From positions 24,567 through 88,566 of the forward strand of contig JAWKLB010000007.1 in NCBI GenBank assembly GCA_041392955.1: a DNA stretch of 64,000 bases, given 5' to 3'. The notes under the pieces were generated by a model. The model worked only from the letters and a program-made list of their open reading frames with translations. It searched no databases and had not been told where the DNA came from. Each line of letters begins with the position of its first letter. Positions within the stretch are counted from its first letter, which is position 1. Positions 53,246 through 63,908 of the stretch are shown here, piece by piece. The position numbers and the translations under genes are program-made. This DNA comes from Chitinophagales bacterium. Its GTDB lineage: Bacteria > Bacteroidota > Bacteroidia > Chitinophagales > BACL12.

Positions 53246-53376
53246 GCCTAACGGTTAATATTTGAAAAGTAGGCGGTTTCGAAGCACTCAACTTTCGATT
53301 AAGCAGAAAGTTTGATACGAGCCAAAAGCTTTAATTTTACAAATGTCTCGCCTATTTTTTATATACATTGTCAGCA
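53246..53376 (-). other. attC-like recombination-site candidate
   Basis: On the minus strand the outer boxes are TGCTGAC ... GTTAGGC. The inner arms are AAAAAATAGGCG / CGCCTACTTTT. It begins 23 nt after the stop of the 53400-53933 ORF. Confidence 0.5.
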
Positions 53377-53399
53377 GCATCCCATTTTATTTTTCTTTG

Positions 53400-53933
53400 T
53401 CATGGGTGAAACGGCAGTTCTTGTTCACATCTATTCCAAAATTCTTCTCCGTCAATGTCGCTAAGGTGGTTTTTGAAAAAGTAAACAGTTTCGTTTTTTA
53501 TCACTGGTTTCGCTTCGTTAAAAGGTTTCCAAAATTCCACGTTTTCCGAGTCAAACATTTTTTCTTTGTCTCTCGAGTAATTGAAAGCATTAAAAATATC
53601 TCTTGGCGGAAAATTGGTTCTGTCAGTAGATGGACTGTTTCCAACGAATTTTGGATAACGTGTCAAGTTTTCAAATTTGTCGTAATAGTCATTATAGTGA
53701 GAGTAACAGACCTGGTCAACGAGAACAGTGAAAAATAGCGCAGTTCCGAAATATGCTTTCCTTTCGTTGTCAAGAAAGTCTAAATAGTCAAAGTCTTTTG
53801 TTAAGGTCTGATATTGTACGGTAAATATTTTTCTGTCGTCAAAAGTATGTTTGCTTCTCTCTGGTATCTTGGAAAAGAACGTCTGAATGTCCTGTCGAAA
53901 CTGGCCGTTGTAATATTTGTCAAATTCATTCAT
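53400..53933 (-). CDS. Hypothetical 177-aa cassette protein
   Basis: It is AT-rich. Its start is 22 nt after a GTTAGCT box. No motif was recognised. Confidence 0.55.
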   Translation of the reverse strand: MNEFDKYYNGQFRQDIQTFFSKIPERSKHTFDDRKIFTVQYQTLTKDFDYLDFLDNERKAYFGTALFFTVLVDQVCYSHYNDYYDKFENLTRYPKFVGNSPSTDRTNFPPRDIFNAFNYSRDKEKMFDSENVEFWKPFNEAKPVIKNETVYFFKNHLSDIDGEEFWNRCEQELPFHP

Positions 53934-53955
53934 TGTTGTCGTTCTTTTTGGTTGC

Positions 53956-54570
53956 AGCTAACGTCAGTTCGTGCAAAGACTAAATTACAAAACAATTTTG
54001 CATTCTATCCCGGCTTATGGCCTGGATGAGAAGATTGATTTTTTAGTTCTCAGCGGGATGCTCCATAGATCGCAATAGTGTAAAAAAGACAAAAAACACC
54101 TCTTTCAGGCGCCTCTTGGAAGCACGTAATACACATGCCTTCGTGCGTCGGGCCGGTAGTAACAAACTCCAATTTTTGCAAAGCAAGGCGATCTACAAAT
54201 TCATCTATGATCCGCACCTGATGATCTTCCGGTATCATTTCCTAAAACGTCACCGGAAAAGCAGAGGTCTGACTTCGATCTATGCCACGTATCGTGCCCA
54301 TAATGGAAAGGTAGTACAAAACATAACACCGAAGTGCTCTTCCAGTATAAAGTTATACAGGGGTTTTGCACAGTCTGACGTTTTTCGGCTTGCCGCAGGG
54401 CTGGTATTGTTGCTGTGTCAGCCTGGCAACTGAAGCCGATTGAAAAACTGATGTTGAGGTTAACAACTAAAAGCCAAATAGAATTCGGCCAAGCCCGATA
54501 TAAGCTGATAGTAGTACAACTAATGATTGTTATGCCGTCCGCCAGCCTTGCGGCAAACCTTTTGTTATGC
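53956..54570 (-). other. attC-like site candidate, interrupted by IS remnant copy 1
   Basis: On the minus strand GCATAAC (54570-54564) begins 8 nt after the stop codon. The arms are TTTGCCGCAAGGCTGG / CCAGCCCTGCGGCAAG. The GTTAGCT box (53962-53956) lies on the far side of the 417-nt insertion. The site proper is long (~198 nt). Confidence 0.5.
53963..54379 (-). mobile_element. Internally deleted IS remnant with terminal inverted repeats (DUF772-type transposase N-terminus only), copy 1
   Basis: The TIRs are GTCAGTTCGTGCAAAG (53963-) and the reverse complement GTCAGACTGTGCAAAA (-54379). The minus strand encodes ...SAFPVTF*EMIPEDHQVRIIDEFVDRLALQKLEF, resembling an IS5/IS1182-type transposase N-terminus, with an in-frame stop and truncation. 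Confidence 0.65.
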
Positions 54571-54578
54571 GTAGCTTT

Positions 54579-61659: not shown

Positions 61660-62249
61660 TTAAATTTCTAATAAATTGGCATTGTCATTTAAGTCCGAGC
61701 CTGATTTCGGATCGTAACCGTCCCACAACCCATTTGTTATACCAAACCTTGTCCTTTTTATTCCTTTACTCTCCAAAATATCATCTTTGTCAACCCAACC
61801 GTACTTTTGGTCAAATATTTCCACGAAGATTTGCGACCGGTCCGAAATGATCTTAATTTTTTTCTGTCCCTTTGACAGTTCAAACACAAAATTCCAAACA
61901 CTTTAAAATCGTAATGAGATGAATCTACACTGTAACCGTAGAGCCCGGTGAGAAATTTAAAATGGTTTTCAAAAATGATTTTTAATTCTTGTGTCATTGA
62001 CTTTAGGATATTGCAGAAAGGTTTGCAGATTTGCGATGGGGGGGGTTCGCCACAAATGTTGATTCGGAGCACAAAACTTTCGGCTACCACAAAACTGGCC
62101 GCGAAAACTTTGACCCCGCCTATAGTAAAAGTGCTGTTAAGTACAGCGCTTATCATGGTGCCGTAAAGGTTCAAAATAAAAAAGAAGTCAAACATTTTTG
62201 TCAATAACCCTTCCACAATCGCCCTATAATCTTCTATTTGAGTATCCAA
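61660..62249 (-). pseudogene. Hypothetical cassette ORF, apparently frameshifted near 61887
   Basis: Two overlapping minus-strand ORFs lie in different frames (61758-62249 and 61660-61887). The tail of the first is R/K-rich junk, while the second reads protein-like (FELSKGQKKIKIISDRSQIFVEIFDQKYGWVDKDD). Confidence 0.4.
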
Positions 62250-62496
62250 AATGTTTAAGGTCGCTCTTTGATGGATAAGGTCACACCGTAATTTGTAGTA
62301 GTGTCCAATTTTTTTTAAGAATAGGATTGCTAATCTTGATGTGAGTTTTCACTTCATTTTCTACTCTAGTCCGATTTTCTGCAATAGTTTGAATTTTGTC
62401 GCTCCAATACTCGTTTCATTTACAGGAATTCTTTGCAACGCTATTTCTAATGTGCTGTCTAAAATTAATAAAAATATTCTGTTTTTCTGAGGGAAA

Positions 62497-62604
62497 GATT
62501 AGCAGAAAATTAAATCTGCAAGCAAGAATGCTGTCAAGCAGTCCGCCAGCCCATGGCTTTTGAACAATTTTTAGCTGCATTTAGTTGGTTAATTTCTGTT
62601 GCAA
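62497..62604 (-). other. attC-like candidate with a degenerate 3' box
   Basis: On the minus strand TTGCAAC abuts the GHKL stop codon. The arms are AGAAATTAA / TTAATTTTCT. The inner pairing is AATGC...GCATT around GGCTGGCGGAC, the same core motif as the 54.5-kb site. The 3' box GCTAATC lacks the GTT. Confidence 0.4.
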
Positions 62605-63726
62605 TCATGTTTTACTGGAGGTGATGTCGGAAGATAGTTTTGGAATACTTGCAATTGTTTCCAGGGTTTCACTAATAATGTGTCCTGTATTGAATGGAAA
62701 TACTTCGTCATCCCATTTTCCCTGTAGGCCCCTAGAAATTTGAGCATACCTTTTTGTAGCATCAATTATGCTTTGTCTTATGGCTTGAAAAACCGGATGT
62801 TTTAAATTAATTCCTGATTTGCTACTATCCCAAGGCATATCGCGAGATTGCCCACGTAGTTTTACAATGGTACGAGTAAGAGAAATATTATAGTGTGGAT
62901 TGCCAATCATTCCTGACGAAAAACCAACCGAAAAATCGGTTAGGGCTCTTCCAATTAACCTATTATTACAATAAAGAAAAACTCCGTAAGAATTGTCTGG
63001 GTCACCAGGATGGTCTATTAGTCCTGAAATAATTTCAACATCTACGAATCTATCTTCAGCGGGAATTTTAGCGGAGAATTGTATTGGAAAAAGGTTGGGC
63101 GGATATGACCATTCATTTTCAAAACTTCGTGCATTTAATTTATCGGTGTTCACTATTATAGAAGTCCCTCTTTCGATAAACATTGAATATATTTCTGAAA
63201 GATGATTTTTTAATTCAATAAGAGCTGGTTCATCAAGCCTGATCCTTAGCCTGGTTAATTCAATTAAAGTTGTTGAAGGATTTAACTTGATTTTTGATTC
63301 GCTATAAGGCAACTTCCAACTTCCTCCGTCTGTAATCCAGGTGTCGTCAAATTTTATGGTAAATGATTTGTCATTTTGGTATCTTGAATGAATTGAAATG
63401 TCCTGCGCCAAGGCGACAACGGCTCTTTTACTGCCAACACCGAAATATCCAATCACATCATCTGAAATATCATTTGTCGTTTTACCCGGACTCACAATGT
63501 GGTCGAGTTTTTGTTCTTCAATCCCACCAGCGTTGTCCATAATGGAAATAGTTTGCTGCTGAATGTCTGCTTTAATTATTATTTCAAGGTCACGTTTTTT
63601 TGTCTTGGACCAAAGGTCGATGGCATTGTCAATAAGTTCGCACACTGACCTTTTTAAGTCATACTCAGAGATAATTGAAAGAAAAATTCGTTTTTCTGGT
63701 GTCGCGTCTAATACTTTGTCCGCCAT
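62605..63726 (-). CDS. GHKL-superfamily ATPase (HATPase_c_3 / MORC-like type)
   Basis: The N-box is CELIDNAIDLW, G1 is MDNAGGI and G2 is GYFGVGSKRA. The 373-aa protein has no recognisable kinase or topoisomerase partner domain. Confidence 0.8.
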   Translation of the reverse strand: MADKVLDATPEKRIFLSIISEYDLKRSVCELIDNAIDLWSKTKKRDLEIIIKADIQQQTISIMDNAGGIEEQKLDHIVSPGKTTNDISDDVIGYFGVGSKRAVVALAQDISIHSRYQNDKSFTIKFDDTWITDGGSWKLPYSESKIKLNPSTTLIELTRLRIRLDEPALIELKNHLSEIYSMFIERGTSIIVNTDKLNARSFENEWSYPPNLFPIQFSAKIPAEDRFVDVEIISGLIDHPGDPDNSYGVFLYCNNRLIGRALTDFSVGFSSGMIGNPHYNISLTRTIVKLRGQSRDMPWDSSKSGINLKHPVFQAIRQSIIDATKRYAQISRGLQGKWDDEVFPFNTGHIISETLETIASIPKLSSDITSSKT

Positions 63727-63769
63727 GTTATTAGTTTTTGATGAGTAATTGGTCCAATGTTAACGTTGC

Positions 63770-63908
63770 ACCTAACGTTTTGCGGCTTGGCGTAGTGGCG
63801 GATTTATAGCACAAAAGTTCAATCGAAGAACTGCACTTGAACCTACCACAAAACTGTCATACGAAGCATTGAACCCGCCATTACGCCAAACCGCTGTGCT
63901 TGTTGCAC
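63770..63908 (-). other. attC-like recombination-site candidate (best example)
   Basis: On the minus strand it reads GTGCAAC-AAGCACAGC-GGTTTGGCGTAATGGCGGG-GTTCAATGCTTCG ... CTTCGATTGAAC ... CCGCCACTACGCCAAGCC-GCAAAAC-GTTAGGT, 139 nt in total. It ends 43 nt upstream of the GHKL start codon. Confidence 0.65.

Follow-up and report, generated by a model that had tools for sequence, protein, structure and literature searches.

A probable integron-type gene-cassette array in a Bacteroidota genome and the family of attC-like sites to which it belongs

Introduction

Among the known systems that capture and shuffle individual genes, integrons are the main one. Here we describe a stretch of 64,000 nucleotides of Chitinophagales DNA (contig JAWKLB010000007.1, positions 24,567 to 88,566; hereafter the window), in which the interval 51.7-64 kb is, with a probability that we put at about 0.82, a chromosomal integron-type gene-cassette array lying on the minus strand of a Bacteroidota genome. 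An earlier annotation made from the letters alone (the sequence-only reading) had proposed an array here, on the strength of nine attC-like imperfect inverted repeats following minus-strand open reading frames (ORFs), with no integrase in the window.

Clusters of attC sites lacking integron integrases (CALINs) were defined with IntegronFinder as groups of two or more attC sites, each less than 4 kb from the next and none within 4 kb of an integrase (PMC9024848). In surveys, integrons were concentrated among Gammaproteobacteria and almost missing from Bacteroidota (PMC9024848), and integrons, CALINs and In0 elements have been only sparsely reported in Bacteroidetes/Bacteroidota (PMC9024848, PMC8618304, PMC9668308). 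No Bacteroidota attC class is described in the titles and abstracts by which we judged the literature, or in the terms searched in one paper. A passage of PMC8138268 describes the insertion specific to the integrase IntI as essential for integron function. Our analysis shows a well-conserved attC family in many uncultured Bacteroidota, with arrays that carry textbook cassette-boundary signatures.

Results

attC-like sites in the window

Comparison with nhmmer tied the window sites to one another and to sites in five other loci. From an alignment of eight bottom strands we built a covariance model of the site family, R2, which we scored at every window position on both strands. Significant matches were confined to 51.7-64 kb, and all were on the plus strand, i.e., the bottom strand of minus-strand cassettes; over the remainder of the window (positions 1-51,700) the best match had an E value of 0.69 and none was significant. 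Three matches were outside the training set: 51717-51843, 58103-58234, and 54373-54570, the last being part of a site split by a miniature inverted-repeat transposable element (MITE). Seven attC-like sites, spaced 0.7-3.9 kb apart when called with this family model of our own, are supported on the minus strand at 51.7-64 kb. Five were in the sequence-only reading, and it had missed two. They are listed here with one further, possible site (A7).

63770-63908, minus strand: attC A1; R'' GTGCAAC, R' GTTAGGT, 20-bp stem; 89.8 bits with R2, folding z score -4.4.
62013-62142, minus strand: attC A2, overlooked by the sequence-only reading; R'' ACTTAAC, R' decayed to TTTCTGC, 5' arm mutated; 93 bits with R2.
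61518-61644, minus strand: A7, a possible divergent or decayed attC; AAATAAC...GTTATCC boxes and a stem; partial R2 match only (E=5.4), folding z score -0.2.
58103-58234, minus strand: attC A8'; R'' GGGCAAC, R' GTTATAA, 19-bp stem; 32.6 bits with R2 (E=8e-6), untrained site.
56538-57120, minus strand: attC A3, split by a MITE; attC body at 57120-56994, R'' CACTAAC, R' GTTGTGC at 56544-56538.
53956-54570, minus strand: attC A4, split by a MITE; body at 54570-54378 with a long variable centre, R'' GCATAAC, R' GTTAGCT at 53962-53956.
53246-53376, minus strand: attC A5; R'' TGCTGAC, R' GTTAGGC; 104.7 bits with R2.
51717-51843, minus strand: attC A11, last in the array and decayed, overlooked by the sequence-only reading; 38 bits with R2 (E=3e-7), untrained.

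A1 is the most upstream site visible; the window end truncates the 5' side of the array (upstream of A1), whose origin lies beyond the window or right at its edge. An attC in the related locus L036 is 95% identical to A1, and the R'' of A1 is the same as in the recombinase-proximal sites of L043, L055 and L045, described below. Nhmmer connected A2 with A1 and A3, found relatives of A5 in L024 and L014, and, starting from A5 (53376-53246), matched a decayed copy at 51838-51732 (E=1.4e-4). A3 scored 76 bits with R2 on 56989-57120. The R2 match of A4 was weak (14.4 bits; E=0.25) because the site is split; its 18-nt arms are 89% complementary. The reverse complement of the A2 R'' (GTTAAGT) agrees with the A1 R' at 6 of 7 positions, as does that of the A4 R'' (GTTATGC) with the A3 R'. 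A stop codon lies 0-23 nt ahead of five sites, with the next start codon 22-71 nt beyond R', and the R'' of A8' overlaps the stop codon of the ORF upstream. Beyond A11, host-like GC content resumes with META-domain lipoprotein genes.

Folding of both strands with DNA parameters gave convincing long hairpins at 63908-63770, ~62140-62015, 57120-56990, 54570-54375 and 53376-53246, and weak or shapeless structures at 62604-62497, 60738-60659 and 59219-59022. Taken element by element, folding energy separated only A1 from chance; the sites beginning at 53376, 58234 and 51843 had z scores of -0.4 to +1.0. The case that the window sites exceed chance rests on homology, covariation and clustering. In the good sites, stem mismatches are mostly A·C on the coding (top) strand and therefore G·T on the bottom strand; the stem mismatches of A7 likewise turn into G·T on the bottom strand. 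A generic scan for AAC...GTT boxes with arm duplex energy was not discriminating (27 minus-strand and 30 plus-strand matches at -12 kcal/mol in the whole window), and neither was a generic listing of inverted repeats in the window.

The boxes and inner arms quoted by the sequence-only reading are present in the sequence as it gave them. Five of its nine sites stand (63908-63770, 57120-56538, 54570-53956, 53376-53246, and 58185-58103 once its 5' end is corrected to 58234), and a sixth (61644-61518) is A7, with its boxes, stem and partial match. The elements at 62604-62497, 60738-60659 and 59219-59022 had zero model matches and folding z scores of 0.19 to 0.58, and are not supported as attC sites.

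The site family

The family is also present in ~20 Bacteroidota loci from metagenome-assembled genomes (MAGs) and metagenomes, hosted by uncultured Saprospiraceae, Flavobacteriales and Bacteroidia. We reached these loci through an insertion sequence (IS) that targets attC, through its terminal sequence and, for recombinases, by examining 20-kb contexts around homologues of its transposase, so the sample is biased towards regions rich in mobile elements. Each site opens with R'' (xxxxAAC) and a short spacer that stays unpaired; an 11-20-bp L stem, a variable centre and the L' arm come next, and a second spacer (typically GCAAAMC) leads to R' (GTTRRRY). Site length is 121-139 nt, and ~205 nt for A4; attC sites in general span about 57-141 nt. 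The boxes at the two ends keep the consensus xxxTAAC and GTTAxxx: of 30 aligned sites, 23-28 have AAC and 27-30 have GTT, with A predominating as the fourth R' base. On the bottom strand, the spacers are ~5 nt (GGTTT) on the 5' side and ~1 nt on the 3' side, and the stem includes two conserved G·T pairs.

The RNAalifold consensus of the eight aligned bottom strands showed compensatory changes at 10 of 13 pairs; counted over the L stem of the family, 12 of 13 pairs have them. For the 30 aligned sites, 95.2% of cells pair, compared with 68.5% in shuffled alignments and 34-50% with the partners slid, pair counts that are biased towards structure since the R2 alignment was fitted to the model. The covariation score was 0.664 versus 0.19 in shuffles, and 0 of 500 shuffles attained it. 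Bottom-strand G·T cells numbered 64 and A·C cells 2, and the bottom strand was the more stable one in 19 of 30 sites (p=0.017). The structure is thus probably selected on the bottom strand.

R2 also identified arrays in L034, L015, L027, L017 and L053. The family is clustered in arrays and not dispersed, as judged from the window and from L034, where R2 gave no significant match outside a 12-kb array. Covariation within the family, the bottom-strand bias, clustering and the boundary match in relatives (see below) together bear out the proposal of a unidirectional cassette array built of imperfect palindromes in the order R''-L''...L'-R'. Rfam at gathering thresholds returned zero matches over the whole window.

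The variable centre of attC sites is normally unconserved. In many members of this family the centre holds two or three copies of the motif (A)GTTTTGTGGT/CT, for example, at 63850-63800 and 62095-62050 of the window, and this motif could be a binding site. A hybrid attC occurs at L017 2779-2910, with a 5' arm of the L024 type (TACCCAAAAGGCGGGG) and a 3' arm of the window A2/A3 type (CCCGCCCTTCGCAAATCTG), which suggests that it arose by recombination within the conserved variable centre.

Cassette boundaries

In integrons, the crossover falls between G and TT of R'; the six bases that follow are the start of the next cassette and are complementary to the R'' of that same cassette. We compared the reverse complement of R'' at site n with the R' 7-mer of site n-1. 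In the related arrays, R'' of full-length R2 sites was the exact complement of the first bases of its own cassette in 13 of 14 junctions. Perfect junctions numbered 6 of 6 in L034 (with R'/R'' pairs such as GTTAGCA/TGCTAAC, GTTATGC/GCATAAC, GTTATAA/TTATAAC and GTTACCA/TGGTAAC), 2 of 2 in L015, 2 of 3 in L053, and one each in L017, L027 and L032. Random pairings are expected to agree at 1.8 of the 4 variable positions and comparison within the same site gave 1.7; the observed mean was reached by 0 of 20,000 random draws. The complementarity therefore places the crossover in the GTT of R'.

Related arrays and their recombinases

The L034 array has eight sites in 12 kb, all of them untrained; seven scored 29-117 bits and one was weak at 17 bits. 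It is flanked by TerC and an RND pump, has no recombinase nearby, and fits the CALIN definition at both ends. Just upstream of its first attC, at 1480-1680, are five CCAACGC repeats, 30-40 nt apart, that could be a protein-binding region. The 21-kb locus L032, reached from L024, is a defence island with one R2 match only and no recombinase; a 312-aa minus-strand ORF that is integrase-like by position was ruled out, as it is without a recombinase domain.

Genes carried by the related arrays encode, among others, a Septu-like AAA_15/21 ATPase accompanied by an HNH nuclease (with an IS30-family element interrupting it), AbiEii, GmrSD and HicAB, the coordinates being L032 7026-10825, L015 6012-7617, L034 11623-13764 and L053 20185-20674. 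Many other cargo enzymes carry the tail of the type IX secretion system (T9SS): a peptidyl-arginine deiminase, a PETase-like hydrolase, and Kelch and SBBP repeat proteins. We rejected L036 versus L034 as clean evidence of cassette shuffling, because recombination between IS copies can explain the difference. The TetR-RND chromosomal flank of L045 is alike in L055 and L044 at 99.8-99.9% identity, and L055 is ~5 kb longer between the recombinase module and this flank, with an Mrr cassette, an AraC+SDR cassette and a second IS copy. L045 and L055 thus differ in cassette content at strain level, a difference that recombination between IS copies could also have produced.

Tyrosine recombinase genes adjoin several of these arrays. 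In L053 (Saprospiraceae), the gene for a 365-aa tyrosine recombinase points towards a five-site array in which four sites are near-identical 127-nt attC. About 170 nt past two small ORFs (DUF4160/DUF2442) downstream of this gene is GTTGTGT, the exact complement of the first site's R''; no hairpin precedes it, and its match suggests a candidate attI-like site, the only one seen in these loci. In L043, L055 and L045, the gene for a 311-aa recombinase lies ~95 nt from the first site, in divergent orientation to the array, and shares 4 nt with the gene of an IS91-family Y2 transposase (L043 7629-9688; L055 2787-4849; L045 2-640). The two genes may form a separate mobile element, or they may be the recombinase module that belongs to the array. 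In L033, the catalytic half of a related recombinase directly follows the IS-carrying attC. Since L043, L055 and L045 carry one lineage of the module, the association of recombinase and array rests on about three independent lineages.

The array-adjacent recombinases carry PF13495 and PF00589, show 33-46% identity among themselves and ~30% full-length identity to IntI1, and keep the catalytic residues R-K-HxxR-H-Y together with a C-terminal SPLDxL motif that they have in common with IntI1. Their best NCBIfam matches are "XerA/integron integrase" and TIGR02249, the score being below the cutoff (176 versus 265 bits); they are also below the cutoff of PRK15417. The closest PDB sequence matches are archaeal XerA proteins, followed by IntI4.

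Insertions at the R' box

The elements given for A3 and A4 in the sequence-only reading are overlong because a MITE of ~0.4 kb is inserted in each.

~56545-56993, within A3: MITE-1, 449 bp; copies and junctions compared.
~53963-54377, within A4: MITE-2, 415 bp; copies and junctions compared.

The two MITEs are ~76% identical overall and 84-94% identical in their best-conserved blocks. Both are inserted between ...AAAC(C) and the GTT of R', the same position in two different attC sites. They have the terminal inverted repeats GTCAGACTGTGCAAAAAC and GTTTTTGCACGAACTGAC, with a 3-4-bp (A)CGT duplication at both junctions, and retain a remnant of a transposase N terminus (MIPEDHQVRIID) with no intact transposase. 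The left end of the MITE, GTCAGAC, resembles an R' box.

The MITE termini are common to full-length elements that encode an IS1182-type DDE transposase (DUF772, DDE_Tnp_1, DDE_Tnp_1_6). In 185,579 species genomes, a 19-base pattern of the right end occurred in 14 chunks, and Bacteroidota MAGs contributed ~11 of these; in the MAG chunks, the right end is followed by GTTRRRY-like sequence, and an attC-like element precedes the left end where this end could be located. A metagenome scan for the MITE end gave six loci, five of them true cases, with no recombinase. In total, the IS1182-family element or its MITEs are at ...AAAC|GTT of different attC sites in the window and ~15 other Bacteroidota loci. 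Because the termini, the (A)CGT junctions and the placement at the R' box recur in relatives, we read the window inserts as MITEs derived from an IS with specificity for the R' box of the family. The titles and abstracts of the literature on IS1182 together with attC and integrons describe no attC-targeting IS1182 element.

Cassette genes and window context

Genes and segments at the array, in minus-strand order, are as follows.

63979-64000, plus strand: ATG, 71 nt from the A1 R'', of an ORF (MQGQKKY...) that continues past the window end; seven codons visible.
62605-63726, minus strand: GHKL-type ATPase, 373 aa (Pfam HATPase_c_3, 6.8e-12); ATG 43 nt beyond the A1 R'.
62012-61645, minus strand: short ORF region of frameshifted appearance, between A2 and A7.
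58235-61517, mixed strands: host-like multi-gene segment, ~3.3 kb; GC content 0.43-0.46, zero internal attC with R2.
60751-61284 and 60274-60642, minus strand: orphan ORFs in the host-like segment, from the ORF list.
59689-60198, plus strand: SnoaL-like ORF in the host-like segment (Pfam).
59251-59628, minus strand: HxlR ORF in the host-like segment (Pfam).
58219-58962, minus strand: 247-aa protein in the host-like segment, from the ORF list.
57132-58031, minus strand: T9SS C-terminal sorting-domain protein, 299 aa (Pfam Por_Secre_tail, 3.5e-8; NCBIfam TIGR04183).
54579-56515, minus strand: two-gene cassette, a DGQHR-domain gene and its partner.
55520-56515, minus strand: DGQHR-domain (DndB/DpdB-like) protein (Pfam DndB, 5.5e-18; NCBIfam DGQHR, 9e-47; PADLOC DpdB, 5.5e-20).
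54579-55514, minus strand: partner, 311 aa, no family match.
53400-53933, minus strand: 177-aa ORF, no family match.
51826-53291, minus strand: last cassette, with two membrane-like ORFs, no Pfam match for either.
52863-53291, minus strand: small membrane-like ORF, ATG likely at 53190.
51826-52845, minus strand: membrane-like ORF, 339 aa, from the ORF list.

PADLOC returned nothing convincing for the GHKL ATPase. Between the stop codon of this gene and A2 are ~460 nt of noncoding DNA (62143-62604) that contain the unsupported element at 62604-62497, and that element and A4 have GGCTGGCGGAC in common; the noncoding stretch may be a relic of a lost cassette or attC. The gene order of 58235-61517 is repeated on the Logan contigs L002 and L003, and the segment may consist of fused cassettes or be a non-cassette insert. 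Exact-protein look-ups of the window cassette proteins led to short Logan contigs from two runs (L001-L003) and nothing else. The species of the window occurs in SRR28338156 and SRR32022410. The suggestion of defence cargo is weakly borne out in the window, which has one DGQHR/DpdB-like gene; the related arrays carry Septu-like, AbiE, GmrSD, Mrr and HicAB genes.

The ATG at 63979 is positioned where L043, L055 and L045 have the start of the divergent recombinase gene. To take it as an integrase start is a guess, a lead and not a finding; the alternative is the end of a minus-strand ORF near 63962. The 92 nt upstream of A1 gave no alignment to the L055 or L043 spacer, and an exact 40-mer from the window end had no match in the genome-contig and metagenome-contig collections searched.

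Pfam scans identified a SusC/SusD pair at 32-36.6 kb and numerous T9SS sorting-domain proteins, as in a Bacteroidota-type chromosome. GC content is 0.44-0.48 (host level) across most of the window; most of 51.7-59 kb and of 62-64 kb is lower, at 0.32-0.39. A separate low-GC island (0.29-0.36) with the appearance of horizontal acquisition is at 15582-31812 on the plus strand. It encodes SrfB-like (1036 aa), SrfC/Virul_Fac-like (955 aa) and subtilase S8 (920 aa) proteins, followed by six ORFs without a Pfam match, and has zero matches to the attC family. Elsewhere, a K_trans (K+ transporter) ORF at 41925-42674 aligns to profile positions 332-442 of 454 only and has the appearance of a gene fragment.

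Discussion

We favor the reading of 51.7-64 kb as an integron-type cassette array, of a variant specific to Bacteroidota, and several observations count against it. Three or four of the nine sites first proposed are not attC, and the pair counts carry the bias given above. The 3.3 kb of host-like sequence at 58.2-61.5 kb does not resemble cassettes; between 59.0 and 61.5 kb the GC content is 0.46, the HxlR (minus) and SnoaL (plus) genes are divergent and no attC lies between genes, so the statement that almost every ORF is followed by an element was overstated. We saw no conserved extrahelical bases in the alignment, the sole bulge column being an insertion in one sequence, and the spacers are asymmetric, unlike the 5/5-6-nt geometry of class 1 sites. 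We also built an ad hoc covariance model, R1, from 15 class 1 attC sites of plasmids (aacC1, aacA4, arr-2, cmlA5, dfrA1, aadA1 and others). It pairs the R and L boxes over 91 positions, has a narrow training set, and differs from the published IntegronFinder model. R1 matched none of the window sites (its best match, E=2.9, was elsewhere in the window) and none in L034; this failure is weak negative evidence against membership in canonical attC. As the sequence-only reading had stated, the window contains no integrase: tblastn of IntI1 gave a best E value of 2.0, and none of the window ORFs scanned with Pfam is a recombinase. For the reading as a canonical integron in particular, the array-adjacent recombinases are without the ~31-45-aa insertion specific to IntI. 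Finally, the window junctions agree at 3, 1, 1, 3, 3 and 0 of the 4 variable positions, which is no different from random (p=0.54). Because the junctions are eroded, the mutated R' of 62142-62013 now begins with TTT, the last site has decayed and MITEs split two R' boxes, we read the window array as old and probably inactive. That its origin is the same as that of the related arrays is inferred.

In the mechanism that we propose, each cassette would consist of a promoterless gene or gene pair and an imperfect palindrome, usually of 120-140 nt. The bottom strand (the plus strand of the window) is predicted to fold into a hairpin, as in canonical attC, and a tyrosine recombinase would bind the folded strand and cut within the GTT/AAC core. 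Cassettes would be excised as circles and then inserted. The recombinase would presumably be encoded outside the window; its gene could begin just beyond nt 64000, or the enzyme could act in trans.

It is quite possible, if somewhat short of probable, that the array belongs to a canonical integron, with a standard IntI that has the insertion and is encoded beyond nt 64000 or elsewhere in the genome, and with ordinary attC that are unusual only in their host phylum. Canonical features are the R boxes, the hairpin predicted on the bottom strand and the boundary signature at G|TT. Integrons, CALINs and In0 have been reported at low frequency in Bacteroidetes/Bacteroidota (PMC9024848, PMC8618304), and arrays distant from an integrase are common, L034 between TerC and the RND pump being an example. 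However, ~400 kb of related loci contain no IntI with the insertion, all IntI1-like matches being without it, and a class 1-derived model, albeit not the published one, fails on these sites. The very few elements that IntegronFinder 2.0 reported in the phylum (PMC9024848) would fit the sites being missed. Given the failure of the ad hoc attC model, the lack of conserved extrahelical bases and the lack of an IntI with the insertion, canonical-integron membership is not established.

More tentatively, the arrays may form a distinct Bacteroidota system, served by a lineage-specific IntI/Xer-like recombinase without the IntI insertion whose gene is at the array origin, divergent or co-directional. 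Such a recombinase adjoins arrays in L053 (co-directional), in L043, L055 and L045 (divergent), and in L033. It shares SPLDxL with IntI1, its best NCBIfam matches are of the integron type though below cutoff, L053 has the attI-like GTTGTGT, and the R'' of window site A1, GTGCAAC, equals that of the recombinase-proximal sites. Against this, the overlap with the IS91-family Y2 gene in L043 and L055 means that the recombinase may belong to that mobile element. The independent associations number only about three, among loci sampled with a mobile-element bias through the attC-targeting IS. L034 and L032 have no recombinase nearby, and the insertion is described as essential in the passage of PMC8138268 cited above.

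A fuller version of the same idea is slightly more doubtful still. It holds that Bacteroidota have their own integron-like platform, with a lineage-specific attC family to which current attC models may be blind, cargo rich in T9SS-secreted enzymes and phage-defence genes, and a dedicated IntI-related recombinase without the insertion, and that the window is a decayed member whose recombinase gene possibly starts at nt 63979. If this were true, cassette recombination through single-stranded hairpins would have evolved, or would persist, without the canonical IntI domain, and the near-absence of integrons from the phylum would be partly explained.

Very improbable is the reading of the elements as hairpins like repetitive extragenic palindromes (REPs) or terminators, or as ends of non-integron transposons moved by IS1182 or IS91 transposases, with no role in cassette recombination: the elements are intergenic, just past stop codons, and could terminate, per-element folding energy is unremarkable for most and transposase genes are often adjacent, but outside the array the window (52 kb) contains no matches, this reading predicts neither the conserved AAC...GTT boxes nor the exact complementarity, at 13 of 14 junctions, of R'' to the first six bases of its cassette, the G·T pairs are on the strand antisense to genes, so that an RNA terminator on the coding transcript would have A·C mismatches, and the IS1182 element interrupts sites and does not bound units.

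If standard tools miss these sites, cassette arrays are under-counted in a major environmental and gut phylum. The insertion-less recombinases beside arrays pose the question of whether the IntI insertion is required for recombination of hairpin attC. The cargo of the related arrays joins T9SS proteins with defence genes (Septu-like, AbiE, GmrSD, Mrr and DGQHR).

Among known systems, sedentary chromosomal integrons and CALINs are the most similar to the arrays described here. Like these, they consist of unidirectional, mostly single-gene, promoterless, low-GC cassettes with a palindrome after each, and have RYYYAAC...GTTRRRY boxes, a bottom strand that would be the folded one here too, and a boundary in the GTT of R', with an R'' complementary to the start of its own cassette. 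As in CALINs, several of the present arrays have no integrase nearby, and the near-identical sites within L053 are reminiscent of the Vibrio VCRs. In contrast to sedentary integrons and CALINs, the present arrays are in a rarely reported host phylum, have sites unmatched by a class 1 attC model, carry repeated (A)GTTTTGTGGT/CT motifs in the site centres, and have much T9SS-secreted cargo. Compared with canonical attC, the sites have asymmetric spacers, two conserved G·T pairs and no conserved extrahelical bases that we could see. REPs and bacterial interspersed mosaic elements are likewise imperfect palindromes downstream of genes and occur in many repeats, whereas the present elements are clustered and one-directional, with AAC/GTT boxes and a cassette-specific R'' that matches the cassette start.

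The array-adjacent recombinases share with IntI (IntI1 and VchIntIA; TIGR02249/PRK15417) the two-domain tyrosine recombinase signature, the catalytic residues and SPLDxL; they differ in being without the insertion, in scoring below the NCBIfam cutoffs and, for one lineage, in being coupled to an IS91-family transposase gene. In integrons described for Treponema, the integrase is co-directional with the cassettes. L053 is similar in that its recombinase is transcribed towards the array and the first crossover-like GTT is downstream of the gene; unlike in Treponema, the recombinase is without the IntI insertion, and two small ORFs (DUF4160/DUF2442) come before the candidate attI. The IS1111-attC group and the group IIC-attC introns are known to insert into attC sites. 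The element found here resembles them in its site- and orientation-specific insertion into the attC of many cassettes and differs in being an IS1182-family DDE transposon (DUF772, DDE_Tnp_1_6) with MITE derivatives. As an attC-specific element with its own MITEs, it would be a further kind of integron-site parasite and a practical marker for such arrays.

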